Assembly (NCBI RefSeq): GCF_030013595.1
Contig: NZ_CP122768.1
Length of the DNA stretch: 64,000 nt
Direction: 5' to 3' (one strand)
Origin: Escherichia coli
Lineage (GTDB): Bacteria; Pseudomonadota; Gammaproteobacteria; Enterobacterales; Enterobacteriaceae
The notes beneath the pieces were generated by a model. That model had not been told where the DNA came from. It made no database searches and saw only the letters and a list, made by a program, of their open reading frames with translations. The position numbers and the translations under genes are program-made. Positions within the stretch are counted from its first letter, which is position 1. Every line of letters begins with the position of its first letter. Of this stretch, positions 3,318 to 16,860 are shown in pieces.

Positions 3318-4055
3318 ATGTGGAAAACACTGCATCAACTGGCGATCCCACCACGGCTGTATCAAATCTGTGGCTGGTTTATACCGTGGCTGGCAATTGC
3401 CAGTGTGGTCGTGCTTACCGTCGGCTGGATCTGGGGATTCGGCTTTGCTCCGGCTGATTATCAGCAGGGAAATAGCTACCGCATTATCTACCTGCATGTG
3501 CCTGCGGCGATCTGGTCGATGGGCATTTATGCATCAATGGCGGTGGCGGCTTTTATTGGCCTTGTCTGGCAGATGAAAATGGCCAACCTGGCGGTGGCGG
3601 CGATGGCCCCCATTGGTGCCGTGTTTACCTTTATTGCCCTGGTTACCGGCTCTGCATGGGGAAAACCGATGTGGGGCACCTGGTGGGTATGGGATGCACG
3701 CCTGACTTCTGAACTGGTGCTGCTGTTTCTGTATGTTGGTGTAATTGCCCTGTGGCACGCCTTCGACGACCGCCGTCTGGCGGGCCGTGCGGCAGGTATT
3801 CTGGTGCTGATTGGCGTGGTGAATCTGCCGATTATTCATTACTCCGTGGAGTGGTGGAACACCCTGCATCAGGGATCAACGCGGATGCAGCAAAGTATCG
3901 ATCCGGCGATGCGTTCGCCGCTGCGCTGGTCGATTTTTGGCTTCCTGCTGCTGTCTGCCACGCTGACGCTGATGCGGATGCGTAATTTAATTTTGCTGAT
4001 GGAAAAACGCCGTCCGTGGGTGAGTGAACTGATACTGAAAAGAGGCCGTAAATGA
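3318..4055 (+). CDS. ccmC: Haem exporter protein CcmC
   Basis: Membrane protein with WGxxWxWD tryptophan-rich motif (WGTWWVWDARL); start trimmed to MWKTLHQ. Confidence 0.9.
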   Translation: MWKTLHQLAIPPRLYQICGWFIPWLAIASVVVLTVGWIWGFGFAPADYQQGNSYRIIYLHVPAAIWSMGIYASMAVAAFIGLVWQMKMANLAVAAMAPIGAVFTFIALVTGSAWGKPMWGTWWVWDARLTSELVLLFLYVGVIALWHAFDDRRLAGRAAGILVLIGVVNLPIIHYSVEWWNTLHQGSTRMQQSIDPAMRSPLRWSIFGFLLLSATLTLMRMRNLILLMEKRRPWVSELILKRGRK

Positions 4056-8962: not shown

Positions 8963-9281
8963 AGTAGTCTCCTGAGGTTTTATTAGAATCATTATGTTTG
9001 AGCGTAGCGTTGGTAACGCTACCAGGCGCGTGAATGTTACCCCATTTTATGTATGGACATGTAGCGAAAACTACAACCTTGTCGTTCGCTTTGGCATCAC
9101 TTTCATTATAAAGACGGAATTTTGCATCAGCTTCTCATCAAGAAAAACAACTAAAAAATCAATCACAATACTTGTGCATTTCTTTAAACAGTTTTTAAAA
9201 ACTGACTCCGGGTATGGAGCTATGGGTATTTTCTCTACCCAATGCTTTTAACAGCAATTAATTTCATAGGATGAAAGCTCA

Positions 9282-11873
9282 ATGCATCAATCTGGTTCTG
9301 TTTCTCTTTGTCGTTCCGCAATATCTGTTCTGGTGGCTACAGCGTTATATTCACCCATAGCATTGGCATCAACAGTTGAGTATGGTGAGACAGTTGATGG
9401 TGTTGTCCTGGAAAAAGATATCCAGCTGGTTTATGGGACCGCCAATAATACGAAAATCAATCCTGGCGGAGAACAGCATATAAAAGAATTTGGTGTAAGT
9501 AGTAATACTGAAATTAACGGAGGGTATCAGTACATTGAAATGAATGGCACCGCAGAATACTCAGTATTAAATGACGGTTATCAAATTGTTCAAATGGGTG
9601 GCGCGGCAAACCAGACTACCCTCAATAATGGTGTGCTACAGGTTTATGGCGCAGCGAATGATACTACCATTAAAGGCGGGCGCTTAATTATTGAAAAAGA
9701 TGGGATTACCGTCTTTGCCGCTATCGAAAAGGGAGGATTACTGGAGGTTAAAGAGGGGGGATTAGCATTTGCGGTAGATCAGAAAGCAGGCGGTGCGATT
9801 AAAACAACCACGCGGGCCATGGAGGTATTCGGAACAAACCGTCTCGGTCAGTTCGATATCAAGGATGGTATTGCTAATAATATGCTGTTGGAAAACGGCG
9901 GAAGTTTGCGAGTTGAAGAAAATGACTTCGCTTATAATACCACTGTGGATAGTGGCGGCTTACTGGAGGTTATGGATGGCGGGACTGCAACTGGCGTTGA
10001 TAAAAAAGCAGGCGGAAAATTAATTGTCTCAACGAATGCGCTGGAAGTGAGTGGTACAAACAGTAAAGGCCAATTTAGTATAAAAGATGGTGTGTCAAAA
10101 AATTATGAACTGGATGATGGTTCCGGGCTCATTGTTATGGAGGACACGCAGGCCATTGATACTATCCTTGATGAGCATGCCACTATGCAATCGCTGGGAA
10201 AGGATACTGGTACGAGAGTGCAGGCAAATGCGGTATATGATCTCGGTCGATCAGATCAGAATGGAAGTATCACGTATTCCTCTAAAGCCATCTCTGAAAA
10301 TATGGTTATCAACAATGGCCGCGCTAATGTCTGGGCTGGCACAATGGTTAACGTTTCAGTCAGAGGGAATGATGGCATTCTTGAGGTCATGAAGCCGCAA
10401 ATAAATTATGCACCCGCTATGTTGGTGGGTAAGGTAGTGGTTTCTGAGGGCGCTTCTTTTAGAACGCATGGTGCCGTGGATACCAGCAAAGCGGATGTTT
10501 CGCTCGAAAATAGCGCATGGACCATCATTGCCGATATCACTACGACGAACCAAAACACTCGCCTCAACTTAGCCAACCTTGCGATGTCTGGCGCAAATGT
10601 GATTATGATGGCTGAGCCAGTGACTCGTTCATCTGTGACGGCAAGTGCGGAAAATTTCACTACGTTGACCACCAATACCCTATCGGGAAACGGCAATTTT
10701 TATATGCGTACTGATATGGCTAATCATCAGAGCGATCAGCTCAACGTGACCGGTCAGGCAACAGGTGATTTCAAAATATTTGTGACGGACACAGGGGCCA
10801 GCCCGGCAGCAGGTGATAGCCTTACACTGGTAACAACGGGCGGCGGTGATGCTGCATTTACGTTGGGCAATGCCGGAGGCGTTGTTGATATCGGTACGTA
10901 TGAATATACCTTGCTGGATAATGGCAACCATAGCTGGAGTCTGGCAGAGAATCGCGCGCAAATTACCCCTTCAACCACTGATGTGCTGAATATGGCGGCA
11001 GCACAACCGCTGGTATTTGATGCAGAACTGGACACCGTGCGTGAGCGTCTTGGTAGCGTAAAAGGCGTTAGTTACGATACGGCGATGTGGAGTTCGGCAA
11101 TTAACACCCGCAACAACGTGACCACTGATGCGGGAGCTGGCTTTGAGCAAACATTGACGGGCCTGACGCTCGGTATCGATAGCCGTTTCTCCCGTGAAGA
11201 AAGCAGTACAATTCGCGGCTTGTTCTTTGGTTACTCTCATTCTGATATTGGTTTTGATCGCGGCGGCAAAGGCAATGTCGATAGCTATACCCTGGGGGCT
11301 TATGCCGGTTGGGAGCATCAGAACGGTGCCTATGTTGATGGGGTGGTGAAAGTTGACCGTTTTGCCAACACCATCCATGGCAAGATGAGTAATGGGGCAA
11401 CAGCGTTTGGCGATTACAATAGTAACGGCGCGGGTGCTCATGTCGAGAGCGGGTTCCGTTGGGTTGACGGATTGTGGAGTGTTAGACCTTATCTGGCCTT
11501 TACCGGCTTTACCACAGATGGTCAGGACTACACGTTATCAAACGGCATGCGTGCGGATGTGGGAAATACCCACATATTACGCGCTGAAGCGGGAACGGCG
11601 GTAAGCTATCACATGGACCTGCAAAACGGTACGACGCTGGAACCCTGGCTGAAAGCCGCCGTACGTCAGGAATACGCCGATTCTAACCAGGTGAAAGTTA
11701 ATGACGATGGCAAATTTAATAATGATGTGGCTGGAACCCGTGGCGTTTATCAGGCTGGGATAAGGTCATCGTTTACCCCGACGTTAAGCGGTCATTTGTC
11801 TGTCAGCTATGGCAATGGCGCAGGGGTAGAATCACCGTGGAATACTCAGGCGGGTGTGGTCTGGTCGTTCTGA
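9282..11873 (+). CDS. yejO: AIDA-I-type autotransporter adhesin YejO, intact
   Basis: 863-aa uninterrupted ORF: signal peptide, passenger domain with internal GG-L-EV repeats, C-terminal beta-barrel ending VVWSF. Confidence 0.8.
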   Translation: MHQSGSVSLCRSAISVLVATALYSPIALASTVEYGETVDGVVLEKDIQLVYGTANNTKINPGGEQHIKEFGVSSNTEINGGYQYIEMNGTAEYSVLNDGYQIVQMGGAANQTTLNNGVLQVYGAANDTTIKGGRLIIEKDGITVFAAIEKGGLLEVKEGGLAFAVDQKAGGAIKTTTRAMEVFGTNRLGQFDIKDGIANNMLLENGGSLRVEENDFAYNTTVDSGGLLEVMDGGTATGVDKKAGGKLIVSTNALEVSGTNSKGQFSIKDGVSKNYELDDGSGLIVMEDTQAIDTILDEHATMQSLGKDTGTRVQANAVYDLGRSDQNGSITYSSKAISENMVINNGRANVWAGTMVNVSVRGNDGILEVMKPQINYAPAMLVGKVVVSEGASFRTHGAVDTSKADVSLENSAWTIIADITTTNQNTRLNLANLAMSGANVIMMAEPVTRSSVTASAENFTTLTTNTLSGNGNFYMRTDMANHQSDQLNVTGQATGDFKIFVTDTGASPAAGDSLTLVTTGGGDAAFTLGNAGGVVDIGTYEYTLLDNGNHSWSLAENRAQITPSTTDVLNMAAAQPLVFDAELDTVRERLGSVKGVSYDTAMWSSAINTRNNVTTDAGAGFEQTLTGLTLGIDSRFSREESSTIRGLFFGYSHSDIGFDRGGKGNVDSYTLGAYAGWEHQNGAYVDGVVKVDRFANTIHGKMSNGATAFGDYNSNGAGAHVESGFRWVDGLWSVRPYLAFTGFTTDGQDYTLSNGMRADVGNTHILRAEAGTAVSYHMDLQNGTTLEPWLKAAVRQEYADSNQVKVNDDGKFNNDVAGTRGVYQAGIRSSFTPTLSGHLSVSYGNGAGVESPWNTQAGVVWSF

Positions 11874-11933: not shown

Positions 11934-11968
11934 TAAAAAAACCAACCTTTACGGTTGGTTTTTTTGGG
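11934..11968 (+). terminator. Rho-independent terminator of yejO
   Basis: AAACCAACC-TTTA-CGGTTGGTTT hairpin followed by TTTTTTT. Confidence 0.7.
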
Positions 11969-12044
11969 ATTTTTGGTCACGAGAGTATTCAAAACACGCC
12001 AATAACCTCTTGATTCAATTGAAGTCGAAAATTTTAAGTCAAAA

Positions 12045-12085
12045 ATCGTATAGCTTAACGTGTAGCTAAAAATGTTTGCTGCAAA
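12045..12085. repeat. Island-terminal repeat CGTATAGCTTAACGTGTAGCTAAAAA, matching the int-proximal end
   Basis: Near-identical to GTATAGCTAAACGTGTAGCTAAAAAA at about 22035-22060; candidate integrase arm-type sites. Confidence 0.5.
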
Positions 12086-12622
12086 AGTATACAATTTTAA
12101 CCGTTATGACTCCCTGTTATCCGTTATCAAGCTGGTGGATGATCATGGATAACCCGTTATGGGAATCCCCATATCGGCATCAGGCCCATGCCATAACAAA
12201 AACCCCATATTCGTGGGTTTTCTGTGTTGTGGCTATTCTGCCGTTGCCGTGCTGGTGGATATTTCCGGTATGTGGCTCACCATATCGGCATCACGCCCAC
12301 CAGCGCGACGCATTTTTTTAATTTCGCGGGTGTAAAAATTTGACGGGGCGGGCGGTCCTATAAGCAATGGGGGGTAGGGATTTCGATCCCCCCTCCTGAA
12401 TGCAATTTTCCGTATGTGGCTGTGCGGCAATCATACTCGTCACATGTTTTTGACAATAAAAGGCCCGACCGTGAGACTCACAAACAAAAAAGTTACGGAG
12501 AAACAGGGGATCGGGCTCGGTTGCCGCTAAATCTATTCAATTAAAAGAAGATGTCAATAGGGAAAACGAAAAAAAACAATGCTGATATTGTCATAATTTG
12601 AACAAAACCACTATATGTAGTT

Positions 12623-12853
12623 TTAGTTCATGAGGTTAGTCGCTACCAGATGCGTCAATAGTTTTTTGCTATTAATAATCCCTCTTTTTCCATCGGGAGC
12701 TTTGCACTTGTCACTACCTGGTAACTCCTGGTGGCGTTCCTGTTGCAGCACAACGGAAACAGGCGCTGAACACCTGTTAATTTTGCTTGCAGGTTGTTTG
12801 ATTTCGGCAATGCTGCGGATCATCTCCAGCATATCGGCTTCGGTGATGGTCAT
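12623..12853 (-). CDS. Hypothetical small protein (76 aa) at the distal end of the island
   Basis: ORF with AAGGTG ribosome-binding site 6 nt upstream of the ATG; no recognisable motif. Confidence 0.3.
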   Translation of the reverse strand: MTITEADMLEMIRSIAEIKQPASKINRCSAPVSVVLQQERHQELPGSDKCKAPDGKRGIINSKKLLTHLVATNLMN

Positions 12854-12883
12854 GATTTACACCTTAGGAAATCTTAGGGGCTG

Positions 12884-13137
12884 GTTGACACTTTCCGGCT
12901 TAAGACCTTAACAAATCTTAACATCGCAGGTTGACACACTTGACACTTTTTCGCGAAAAACCTTATCAAACCTTAGCATTTCTAAGCATGGCAACTTGAC
13001 ACTTTTCGCGATTTTTTCGGCTTTTTGACGTGGTAAATCTGGCGCAAAGCCAGTAACGGCGGGGTTTACAGCGAGGTTGACACTTTTTCGCGTTCAGAGT
13101 GTAAAGTGTCAACCTGGCAAGCTGCTCAACTTGACAC
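12884..13137. repeat. Array of at least 7 copies of GGTTGACAC(TTTTTCGCG) in both orientations, interspersed with CTTA(A/G)CA short repeats
   Basis: Copies at about 12884, 12929, 12940, 12996, 13075, 13105 (inverted) and 13131; lies immediately downstream of the TerS-like gene. Confidence 0.6.
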
Positions 13138-13146
13138 TTTTTGAGG

Positions 13147-13674
13147 TCATTGATGGCCTGATTTTTCCCACTCAGCCAGGGCGTTTAGTCCGGCTTCACT
13201 CCAGTTATCCAGCTCATCGGGACAATCACCTGCAACATAGCAGAGCTCACAACGCAGCATACGAATTGCCAGCCTGGCATTTTCCCGAAAATCATACTGC
13301 TCAAAGTAATATTGCCCAGCATAATCCTCAAGGCAGATAGCACCATCATCAAGAAATTGCACTTCACAGCATAGTTCCCCGGCTGCATCCTGTACACGCT
13401 GCTGTATGTCATTGTCCGTTACTGGTGCAGGGATTTTACCGTCTCTGGCCTTAACTGCTTTCCAGAACTCGCCCCACGTCATTTCCAGCGTTCTCTCTGG
13501 CCACATTTCAGAAACGGTATCTTTTCCCTGTGCTGGTGGGCTGTTCCGCTGCTCTGTCGCTTCCACATCGATTTTTTTACCGGACATGACCACTTCGCCT
13601 TTCTCGATCCAGTCGTAAACTGTCTGGCGGCTTACGCCTTTGTGTTTGGCATATTCTGCCTTGCTCATAAACAT
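13147..13674 (-). CDS. Small terminase-like winged-HTH protein (Rpp-like packaging-redirection candidate)
   Basis: 175 aa; N-terminal MSKAEYAKHKGVSRQTVYDWIEKG resembles the Nu1/TerS-type HTH; acidic cysteine-containing C-terminus; GAGGGGA ribosome-binding site. Confidence 0.5.
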   Translation of the reverse strand: MFMSKAEYAKHKGVSRQTVYDWIEKGEVVMSGKKIDVEATEQRNSPPAQGKDTVSEMWPERTLEMTWGEFWKAVKARDGKIPAPVTDNDIQQRVQDAAGELCCEVQFLDDGAICLEDYAGQYYFEQYDFRENARLAIRMLRCELCYVAGDCPDELDNWSEAGLNALAEWEKSGHQ

Positions 13675-13844
13675 GACACTTCCCCTCAGACTGTATTAAT
13701 GCGCCGGAAAGCGCGTGTATTTAAATCATCCCAGGAACCGTTGAGCACCAATTAGTTGCGCGAAGTAATCGGCACCAGCGTTCCGAACAATTTCCAACTT
13801 AACGTTCTGATCATTGTTTCCTGCTGCAGGGACAATCCCACGAT

Positions 13845-14498
13845 TCATAGCCAGCGCCCGGATATTTCTTCCAGTTTTTCCAGAGCTGGCTTGCAGGCCG
13901 CATCAATAACTTCACGGACCATTCCGGCGAGCTGTTCTTCTTCTGTCGGCGTTGTTACTTCCACACCTGATGGTTTCCCGCCCTTATCCCATACGCCCAA
14001 CGGTACGAGCGCAACGTGATCGATAAGAAATGGCGTACCCTCAATGAAAAAATTGTCCTCGCCCATTACATCAGGAACTTCTGCCCCACCGGACGCACCA
14101 CAAAACACAACCGACGGGCTGGTGGATACCTCCCCCCGTGCTTTCTGGATGTAATCGATGATTTCCTGCCCGTAAATCCGGCATACGCCCCACACCTCGT
14201 CACCGCGAATATACGGCAACATGACGGTGCCAATAATGCGCGACCGTTCGCCCACGTCTTCAAGGGTTTTGCTTTCGGGATGGTCGATAATGACGGGTAC
14301 TCCGGCGCAACGTTCCAGGAACTGCGGATTGAGATAAGTTTGCGGTGAACGCCAGACAAATTCTTTTTCTTCGGCGCGATAGGCCATTCCGGTTCCTGTG
14401 ATACGCAGGTTAATCAGCCACATGTTGGAAAACTGATAAGGCGACGGTAGCTGACCGTCCCGAATCTGCTTTGCCGCCTCAATTTCTGTTAAAAGCAT
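13845..14498 (-). CDS. Hypothetical protein (217 aa), island cargo of unknown function
   Basis: ORF in the same transcriptional orientation as the packaging module; no motif I can assign. Confidence 0.5.
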   Translation of the reverse strand: MLLTEIEAAKQIRDGQLPSPYQFSNMWLINLRITGTGMAYRAEEKEFVWRSPQTYLNPQFLERCAGVPVIIDHPESKTLEDVGERSRIIGTVMLPYIRGDEVWGVCRIYGQEIIDYIQKARGEVSTSPSVVFCGASGGAEVPDVMGEDNFFIEGTPFLIDHVALVPLGVWDKGGKPSGVEVTTPTEEEQLAGMVREVIDAACKPALEKLEEISGRWL

Positions 14499-14562
14499 AA
14501 TGTCCCCCGGTTATAAGCAATAAGCCCCACCAAATCCGGCAGGGCTGAAATCAGCACGTTTT

Positions 14563-15156
14563 TCATGCCCCCGCGAGGCTTGCAACGTTAATTTTAACCA
14601 GGCGACGGGGAGGGATTTTGAAAGCACTAAGCCAGTTATTCGGATCCCCCTGATATTCAGTAATCCGCCGTCCGGCTTCATCCATTCTTACGGTTTTACG
14701 CAAATAGCCCGGCGTATTTTCCACAGCCCACTGAACACTGTCTTTTGCAGCCTGGTAAATCTGATCTTCCAGCACCGCCAGCGTTGCAGAATCTGAAACG
14801 GAACGAATATCCACATCACTGAATTTTTTAGCCAGCTTCTGTGCACCAATTAATGCACGCTTGCGGTAATCCATCGACTTTTCACCAGCAAACGGGGCTG
14901 GAGCGCGACGGCCCATATTGCTGTATGCGGAATCCGCTTTAGCCTGGGCTTCTGCCAGTGAGGATTCATCTTCGACTGACGCGACGATGTTTTTATTCGC
15001 GTCATCCTCGTCCGCTTTTGTGAAATCCTGTGCGGGGATCGCATTCAGAATTTCGATAATCTCCTGCGGAGTGCTGCCCTGCGACTCTGACAGAGCGTTA
15101 ACCACCTCCATCAGTTTTAATCGCAAATCTTCTTTGCTTGCTGGCATTTTTACCAC
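14563..15156 (-). CDS. Hypothetical protein (197 aa), acidic and Ala/Lys-rich, predicted largely helical
   Basis: ORF adjacent to the 217-aa ORF; composition resembles scaffold or decoration-like proteins, but this is unverified. Confidence 0.5.
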   Translation of the reverse strand: MVKMPASKEDLRLKLMEVVNALSESQGSTPQEIIEILNAIPAQDFTKADEDDANKNIVASVEDESSLAEAQAKADSAYSNMGRRAPAPFAGEKSMDYRKRALIGAQKLAKKFSDVDIRSVSDSATLAVLEDQIYQAAKDSVQWAVENTPGYLRKTVRMDEAGRRITEYQGDPNNWLSAFKIPPRRLVKINVASLAGA

Positions 15157-15186
15157 CTCTCTTTTTTCACCAAAAAATCACGACCA

Positions 15187-15366
15187 TCAGGCCGGACGTT
15201 CTACGGGATAAAGCGCCCGCTGCATTAAACGCCGGGCGACCTCATGAATGCTCGGAGCAATCCCCAGCGGAGAATTGCGGCGTTCCTCGTCCTGGATGCG
15301 CTGTAATGCTTCAATCTGATCACGAGCGAGTAAAACGGGTTTCACGCTGGCTTTTCTCATAGTCAT
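15187..15366 (-). CDS. Hypothetical small basic protein (59 aa), possible DNA-binding regulator
   Basis: AGGAG ribosome-binding site upstream of ATGACTATG; first gene after tandem terminators, so it probably heads its own transcription unit. Confidence 0.4.
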   Translation of the reverse strand: MTMRKASVKPVLLARDQIEALQRIQDEERRNSPLGIAPSIHEVARRLMQRALYPVERPA

Positions 15367-15489
15367 ATCTCCTGAACAAAACAATGATTATGATTGCACA
15401 AACTGAAATAACGATCTACATCATTGCAATTTATGAAACAATAACGCATGATGATCGCGTTCTTCCCATTGACTTCAATCACCTGAAAA

Positions 15490-15560
15490 ACAAAGCCCGC
15501 AACACTTCTGGCTGCGGGTTTTTTACTGGCACAAAAAAGCCGGGAAAAATCCCGGCCTCC
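15490..15560 (-). terminator. Tandem rho-independent terminators downstream of the PerC-like gene
   Basis: Two hairpins (GCCGGGA...TCCCGGC and CCCGCA...TGCGGG), each followed by a T-run on the minus strand. Confidence 0.55.
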
Positions 15561-15561
15561 G

Positions 15562-15849
15562 TCACTGACTGCAATTTTTCGATCCAGGGTATTTCCTGAA
15601 TGCCTTACCATTGGGCTGATGTAATCCCATCCCGGCATGTGCCCGGCTGATGGTTTCGCGCATTTCCCCGAAATTATCCTGCCTTGCTGGTGGGCGTGCT
15701 GCCTTGCGGATACATTCCGCGCGACGTTTTGCCGCCTGTTCCCGTGCCTTGTCATCATTCGCCAGCATGATGACCTCAGCCCACCGCGCCGCCGCTCTCC
15801 GGTACAGACCACGCGCTTCCAGTGCTTCCGCTTTGCTGTCGTGAATCAT
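15562..15849 (-). CDS. PerC-family transcriptional regulator-like protein
   Basis: 95 aa; N-terminus MIHDSKAEALEARGLYRRAAARW matches my memory of the PerC/Pch family; GGAGAA ribosome-binding site; 4-nt overlap with the upstream gene. Confidence 0.55.
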   Translation of the reverse strand: MIHDSKAEALEARGLYRRAAARWAEVIMLANDDKAREQAAKRRAECIRKAARPPARQDNFGEMRETISRAHAGMGLHQPNGKAFRKYPGSKNCSQ

Positions 15850-16388
15850 GCGCCTGTTTTCTCCTTTGCTGCCCGGCGCTGACGTTTGCGCTTCTCATTC
15901 AGCGCCACCAGCCGCGTTTCTGCGTCCTGTTGTTCCTGTGGTGTCACCTCGCCGCACGGCTGGCCTTTCAGGTCGTAGCGTACCCCACCAGCCATTAAGG
16001 CGCGGTAATAGCGCGGACACTGCGCATAAGATGCCAGCGTCGCACGCAATGCCCCTGGACCGAATGCCAGCCCCCTGACGGCGAGATCCTGCATCAGGTC
16101 GTCGAATATCCCCACCTTAAGCGGCTTCGGTGCTTCCCGGCTGAATAATTCAGGCCACAACTCAGTGAGGCGGTTAACGCGCCTGCGGTTTTTGCGCTGG
16201 CGTTTGGTCATATGCCGCCACGGTGTCGCCCCTGTGGGCTTCTGCTGCGCTTTCTGGTTACCGGGCATCACTTTATGCGCCGATGTGGTTTTATCCTGCT
16301 CCTGCGCCGCCTGCGTCGTTTTCTGCGGCGTGCCGTAAATGCCTTTCGGTTTTCTGTTAATGGTCAGCTTAGTCATGCTTTGCCCCAT
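15846..16388 (-). CDS. FinO/ProQ-family RNA-binding protein-like
   Basis: 180 aa; basic N-terminal region followed by LKVGIFDDL...YAQCPRYYRAL, resembling the FinO/ProQ fold. Confidence 0.5.
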   Translation of the reverse strand: MGQSMTKLTINRKPKGIYGTPQKTTQAAQEQDKTTSAHKVMPGNQKAQQKPTGATPWRHMTKRQRKNRRRVNRLTELWPELFSREAPKPLKVGIFDDLMQDLAVRGLAFGPGALRATLASYAQCPRYYRALMAGGVRYDLKGQPCGEVTPQEQQDAETRLVALNEKRKRQRRAAKEKTGA

Positions 16389-16439
16389 CGTTTTTACTGG
16401 TTGCTACGTTGCCCAACGGCACTGACACAACATTCTGTT

Positions 16440-16860
16440 TTCATTTTTAACATTCCTGATTTTTTAATTCCTCACCTGCTGCACAGTGAAAATTTATGAA
16501 GTTAATAACAATATGATTTTAAATGTATTTTTAAGTACTCACTTTTTAATCCTTATATATACGCAAAAGTGAGGTAAATAGTTAAGTTTTAGTTAATATC
16601 TTGCATGGTGTGTTTTTTAACCTACCTGTTATTTTTATTACCTCATTTCTATTAACTCACCATTCCTCACTTTTGTTCCTCACTTTTTATTATTCTTGTT
16701 CTGCTCCTCAGTCGTTTTCTTTATTGTTGTAATCTGTTGTTTTGCAATGTGTTTTTAACTCCTCACTTTTTGACCTATATACAGGTGAGAAAGTGAGGAG
16801 TGGCGTTGATTTTTTGTTAAATTACCCGCCATCCTCACTTTTGCTCCTCACTTTTTACAG
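16440..16860. repeat. Putative satellite replication origin: AT-rich region with CCTCACTTTT iterons
   Basis: At least 8 copies of CCTCACTTTT (direct and inverted) plus degenerate copies, immediately downstream of the RepA-like gene. Confidence 0.7.

Follow-up and report, generated by a model that had tools for sequence, protein, structure and literature searches.

In Escherichia coli K-12, yejO is annotated as a pseudogene, and the question raised by the locus described here is whether a strain in which this gene reads through without interruption is exceptional, and whether it may be expected to display a further adhesin. The window, by which we mean the whole stretch of 64,000 nucleotides that was analysed (contig NZ_CP122768.1), carries such a copy, and a first-pass annotation made from the sequence alone had proposed that it may express a functional adhesin next to an island insertion site. 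In our judgement the open reading frame is very probably an intact allele of this core-region gene, coding for a type Va autotransporter of the AIDA-I/Ag43 type whose most likely role would be in adhesion or aggregation.

The yejO locus and the K-12 lesion

The ORF listing gives, on the plus strand, a single frame of 863 codons plus a stop codon, which begins with ATG and is free of internal stops, just as the first-pass annotation had described it, and re-inspection brought to light neither a frameshift nor a premature stop. A Shine-Dalgarno sequence (AGGA, 9270–9273) lies 8 nt 5' of the ATG. The gene order is ccmH-narP-yejO-tRNA-Pro-yejM, with ccmH/dsbE and narP forming the left flank; the position between narP and tRNA-Pro(GGG)/yejM is that of the K-12 order narP-yejO-proL-yejM, here with a 10.2-kb island between yejO and the tRNA gene, and this synteny, together with 97.3% identity to the K-12 gene freed of its insertion sequence (see below), identifies the gene as yejO. 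The locus was matched in 5424 of 5426 complete E. coli genomes. The features are collected in Table 1; an Rfam search over the whole window returned only tRNA-Pro and an L25 leader, with no match at yejO.

UniRef and NCBI already list the exact 863-aa protein, under the name "autotransporter YejO [Escherichia coli]"; it occurs on 89 contigs and, at 90% identity, falls into a cluster of 16,859 members. In this protein, 840 to 855 of the 863 residues are identical in four other strains. That the continuous frame might be an assembly or consensus artefact masking a frameshift or a stop is a generic possibility for which no supporting evidence was found, and one so improbable that it can be set aside, since the identical protein occurs on 89 independent public contigs, the reading frame is the same throughout in closely related strains, and the ORF has no homopolymer run of 7 or longer.

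Table 1. Features of the yejO locus and of the adjoining island, in window coordinates.
Feature	Position	Strand	Basis
narP-yejO divergent intergenic region	8993..9281		289 bp, 37% GC, AT-rich
yejO ORF, intact	9282..11873	+	ORF listing, Pfam/TIGR01414, K-12 alignment, exact NCBI protein
Predicted Sec signal peptide, aa 1-29, ALA|ST	9282..9368	+	Heuristic; AF2 low-confidence N-terminus, helix 14-21
TTAT, K-12 IS5 target (duplicated in K-12), uninterrupted here	9345..9348	+	Alignment with MG1655
Passenger, aa 30-561, right-handed beta-helix, AIDA-I/Ag43 type	9369..10964	+	Pfam AIDA x2, TIGR04415, PDB sequence matches, AF2, Foldseek
Two tandem ~74-aa repeat units, aa 168-241 and 242-315	9783..10226	+	Self-comparison
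Pertactin-like domain, aa 431-555, C-terminal end of passenger	10572..10946	+	PF03212; PDB matches pertactin, Vag8
Alpha-helical linker, aa 563-592	10968..11057	+	AF2 model
12-strand outer-membrane beta-barrel, aa 600-863	11079..11870	+	Pfam, TIGR01414, AF2, Foldseek BrkA 3qq2
Codon 789, TGG (Trp) in window, TGA in widespread nonsense allele	11646..11648	+	Strain alignment, allele probes
Terminator-like hairpin 3' of yejO	11934..11966	+	Conserved in K-12
Imperfect partial tRNA-Pro 3'-end copy TGGTCACGAGAGTATT, att remnant at left island boundary	11974..11989		Sequence comparison
Island, ~10.2 kb, between yejO and tRNA-Pro	11990..22171	-	Limit of homology to island-free genomes at 11989
tRNA-Pro (GGG), proL, integration target	22172..22248	-	Rfam/tRNA detection

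The statement in the first-pass annotation that the K-12 gene is disrupted by an insertion sequence is borne out by alignment of the two loci. In MG1655, an IS5 of 1195 bp lies after codon 22 (codon 22/23), within the predicted signal peptide, and is flanked by a duplication of TTAT (positions 2846–2849 and 4045–4048 of the MG1655 locus, L001); the RefSeq annotation of this strain accordingly comprises a 23-codon N-terminal fragment, the IS5 transposase and a yejO pseudogene "missing N-terminus". When the IS5 and one TTAT are removed in silico, an ORF of 863 codons is restored, 97.3% identical in its product to the window protein, so that IS5 is the sole lesion of K-12 yejO and the K-12 copy is dead only through this lineage-specific insertion in the signal-peptide codons. 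The split of K-12 yejO by IS5 has also been stated in the literature (PMC11005336), and in BW25113 the IS5 copy 8 sits in yejO in direct orientation (PMC11677980). The examples of IS5 insertion sites given in the latter paper are CTAA and CTAG, neither of which is matched by the TTAT of yejO.

Apart from the IS5, the differences between the window protein and other YejO alleles are substitutions of 8 to 25 aa. Identity to YejO of O157:H7 is 98%, and neither the IS5, nor the nonsense codon at position 789 (W789*), nor the deletion of a 74-aa repeat found in other strains is present: codon 789 is TGG, no IS interrupts the gene and both repeats are kept. The window strain is thus free of the K-12 IS5 and of the other common yejO lesions tested.

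Retention, loss and expression across E. coli

Intact counterparts of the K-12 pseudogene b2190, at the same locus and of the same length, exist in O157:H7, in the laboratory strain T7 Express and in many other strains, both commensal and diarrhoeagenic. Annotation was inspected in a sample of 12 loci. Uninterrupted copies of 863 codons were found in O157:H7 F7349, T7Express, 1424KP, ETEC4079, 1428, CT29 and 2015-01-466, all of which except CT29, to which a later start is assigned, are annotated by PGAP as full-length with no pseudogene flag.

The frequency of the K-12 lesion was estimated with a 120-nt probe across the yejO/IS5 junction, searched by megablast against 5426 complete E. coli genomes and fully matched in 357 of them (6.6%); full-length matches, among the matches listed, are ER1709, DH5a and K-12 MG1655, all three of them laboratory strains. 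Intactness is therefore not unusual, given intact copies in many strains and the K-12 lesion in 357 of 5426 genomes. A second lesion, TGG to TGA at codon 789, is common to three of the sampled strains; it falls in strand 9 of the barrel in the AlphaFold2 (AF2) model and truncates the barrel from there. Allele-specific 36-nt megablast probes, designed so that the opposite allele is unable to seed a match, detected TGA in 1158 of the 5426 genomes (21%), an O111:H8 strain among them, which makes this nonsense allele far more frequent than the IS5 insertion, and TGG in 2970, a count that takes in the K-12 strains. Around 1300 genomes (~24%) were matched by neither probe, i.e., lack a match to this barrel-coding part, and may typically hold a remnant like that of the ST131 strain JJ1886, where only 0.9 kb of frameshifted yejO is left; a remnant is also seen in rows of the whole-locus search with 36–45% coverage. 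The JJ1886 remnant agrees with a report that yejO is "missing from ST131" (PMC5654935). As relayed in PMC3426408, Wells et al. (2010) found yejO in all commensal and diarrhoeagenic genomes, and truncated in all UPEC genomes, that they compared.

Other lesions were met in single strains, namely insertions of IS2 or IS3, and in UK_Dog_Liverpool an in-frame deletion removes exactly the first 74-aa repeat (9783–10004, aa 168–241), leaving a protein of 789 aa, annotated as functional, so that repeat loss is a source of variation in the length of the passenger. Subtraction of the K-12 junction matches from the TGG count puts the share of complete genomes with an intact yejO at (2970 – 357)/5426, or ~48%, at most, a ceiling derived from junction- and allele-specific probes of 36–120 nt rather than from ORF calls genome by genome; since RefSeq sampling is biased, all these percentages are descriptive only. 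The figures portray a dispensable surface protein that has repeatedly been lost, and the window yejO as an unremarkable allele, its gene named and its protein already deposited. The contrast with K-12 belongs to textbook knowledge of the strains. The gene, its IS5 lesion in K-12 and its presence or truncation across pathotypes are likewise already known from the literature and from RefSeq annotation.

From the recurrent natural loss it follows that yejO is dispensable and could be cryptic, and the alternative that retains most weight is that the gene is intact but silenced, for example by H-NS, and drifting to loss, so that no functional adhesin would be made under ordinary conditions. We consider this a substantial possibility, though somewhat less probable than its opposite. 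Several other autotransporter genes of E. coli are repressed by H-NS, and the region upstream of yejO has a low GC content (37%); in a simple sigma-70 scan (8993–9281) no consensus promoter was found, a result that is uninformative rather than negative. A Dam/OxyR-type switch is also absent, with no GATC site in the 289 bp of the intergenic region, and inactivation has been both recurrent and independent in many lineages. In addition, transcription in K-12 is very rare, yejO being detected in 106 of 3376 RNA-seq sets and ranking among the least often expressed genes, a figure confounded by the IS5 (PMC10392735).

Against silencing and drift stands the pattern of substitution, as comparison of the window allele with 11 others gives dN/dS values of 0.10–0.24, which indicates past purifying selection and speaks for long-term constraint. 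Roughly half the genomes, at most, may moreover have kept the full-length ORF, and the gene still has its terminator and a good Shine-Dalgarno sequence. Recombinant YejO was recognised by 51.8% of sera from 141 healthy people (PMC11242715), which is compatible with expression in vivo, although cross-reaction with other AIDA-type autotransporters is possible. A functional study of YejO was not found in the searchable literature; most of the matching papers use K-12 ΔyejO as a neutral "wild-type" control.

The coexistence of purifying selection where the gene is intact with several kinds of lesion (IS5, W789*, the remnant or UPEC truncation, IS2/IS3) leads to a further idea, that intact and null yejO are a maintained, niche-dependent polymorphism rather than stages of neutral decay. 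We regard this as speculative and unlikely; if it were true, YejO at the surface, recognised by about half of the healthy human sera, could help in gut colonisation and be costly elsewhere, as a target for immunity, phages or competitors. In any case, the window strain is able to encode one further surface autotransporter, which may bear on studies of adhesion, biofilm and serology.

Architecture and relatives of YejO

The first-pass annotation had ascribed to the protein a signal peptide, a repeat-containing passenger and a complete C-terminal barrel, of which the passenger and the barrel are recovered by profile and structure comparisons. The N-terminus, with R11, a hydrophobic core at aa 12–22 and A-L-A at 27–29, fits the n/h/c pattern of a Sec-type signal peptide, plausible on this heuristic reading. 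In the passenger, Pfam finds two stretches of AIDA (PF16168, E=1.6e-51) and NCBIfam the strand-loop-strand repeats of TIGR04415; a diverged tandem repeat of ~74 aa occupies aa 168–313, with 30 of 72 residues identical between aa 168–239 and 242–313. The Pertactin profile (PF03212, E=7.5e-45) covers aa 431–555, and this pertactin-like domain probably acts as an autochaperone region. The barrel is complete, as judged from the Autotransporter beta-domain (PF03797, aa 602–841, profile positions 1–254 of 255) and from TIGR01414 (aa 456–863, positions 2–432 of 432), and the protein ends in VVWSF, with an aromatic last residue (F) as in the beta-signal for BAM.

The AF2 model was built with 103 diverse homologues as input and has a mean pLDDT of 82.5. 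It predicts a beta-solenoid at about aa 29–561, with weaker confidence at 252–290 and 410–454, a long helix at 563–592, expected to occupy the barrel lumen, and twelve long beta-strands at 600–862, with pLDDT above 90. Foldseek comparison with the PDB matched the passenger with Ag43 (7koh, E=3.7e-17, and 7ko9), TibA (4q1q) and pertactin, and the barrel with BrkA (3qq2), EspP, Hbp, NalP and the AIDA-I transport unit (4mee); a sequence search of the PDB returns the same set of structures, including Ag43, TibA, pertactin and Vag8. With a full barrel, a linker helix, a beta-helical passenger and a terminal F, YejO is, by sequence and model, a classical (type Va) autotransporter.

In type Va secretion, it is well known that the protein is routed through Sec, that BAM inserts the barrel and that the passenger is translocated from its C-terminus to its N-terminus. 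By analogy with the family, the 29-residue signal peptide of YejO would route the protein through Sec, the C-terminal 12-strand barrel would be put into the outer membrane by BAM, and the linker helix and passenger would be threaded outward in the C-to-N direction. Folding of the passenger would nucleate at its pertactin-like C-terminal end and give rise to a surface beta-helix of ~530 residues, which most likely would mediate adhesion or cell-cell aggregation. The "functional adhesin" of the first-pass annotation is in this sense a homology-based reading.

Antigen 43 (Flu/Cah), a self-associating autotransporter, provides the best match of the passenger to a solved structure (7koh, phmmer E=3.2e-37), and the type Va architecture is common to both proteins; YejO, however, scores 143 bits on the NCBIfam equivalog model for Ag43, whose cut-off is 1200, lies at a different chromosomal locus and lacks upstream switch sites of the GATC/OxyR type. 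A phase switch through Dam and OxyR, like that of Ag43, was considered and rejected, as GATC is absent upstream and the ORF has no homopolymer tract. With the glycosylated AIDA-type adhesins AIDA-I and TibA, YejO has in common the AIDA repeat domain and the TIGR04415 repeats, a TibA fragment (55–350) superposes on the model with a TM of 0.74 and an rmsd of 2.1 Å, and the AIDA-I transport unit matches the barrel. Here too there are differences: on the AIDA-I equivalog model, whose cut-off is 1200, YejO reaches 72 bits, its passenger is much shorter, and no heptosyltransferase (aah/tibC type) or other glycosyltransferase ORF adjoins the gene, its neighbours being narP and the att site with the island.

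More distant likenesses are found in Bordetella, where the BrkA beta-domain (3qq2) superposes on the YejO barrel with a TM of 0.89–0.90, pertactin has its domain likewise at the junction of passenger and barrel, and Vag8 aligns with aa 384–862 of YejO, whereas the genus is different, the N-terminal passengers are unrelated and identity is ~22%. On the equivalog scores, YejO is a relative of the Ag43/AIDA-I adhesins and a member of neither family.

Passengers of autotransporters are functionally diverse and YejO is without an experimental phenotype, so that a non-adhesive passenger, such as a protease, an esterase or a toxin, is conceivable. We think this quite improbable, given that only AIDA-type, pertactin-like and barrel domains, and no catalytic domain, are found by Pfam and NCBIfam, and that the best structural matches are the adhesins Ag43 and TibA together with pertactin. 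A role in adhesion or aggregation is, for these reasons, the reading that we prefer.

The island at tRNA-Pro

The placement of yejO beside an island insertion site, also put forward in the first-pass annotation, proved correct, as the gene is separated by ~100 bp from the left boundary of the tRNA-Pro island, which has left the yejO ORF and terminator unchanged and hence the gene undamaged. The left boundary is marked by the att remnant (Table 1), the counterpart of which in the tRNA gene itself reads TGGTCGGCACGAGAGGATT. The tRNA-Pro beside yejO is a known integration site (PMC4924310), and in ETEC strains from pigs it is occupied by a larger island, related to the present one and likewise next to an intact yejO.

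Among the products of the island are an integrase (20721–21962), adjoining tRNA-Pro, a RepA-like helicase/primase (16855–18270), a repressor-like protein, DUF2213-like proteins and a small-terminase-like protein. By this gene content, the island appears closer to phage satellites of the PICI or P4-like kind than to a complete prophage. Its sole match in a phage collection is a stretch of 82 bp (12315–12396) with 85.7% identity to what is annotated as the cos site in the Stx phage phiP27, and this cos-like site suggests that a helper phage of the cos type might package the island. Beyond the right end, the L25 ribosomal-protein leader is found at 25964–25989 on the minus strand, as expected upstream of rplY, and its presence confirms the ordinary yejM-yejL-yejK-rplY context on that side.
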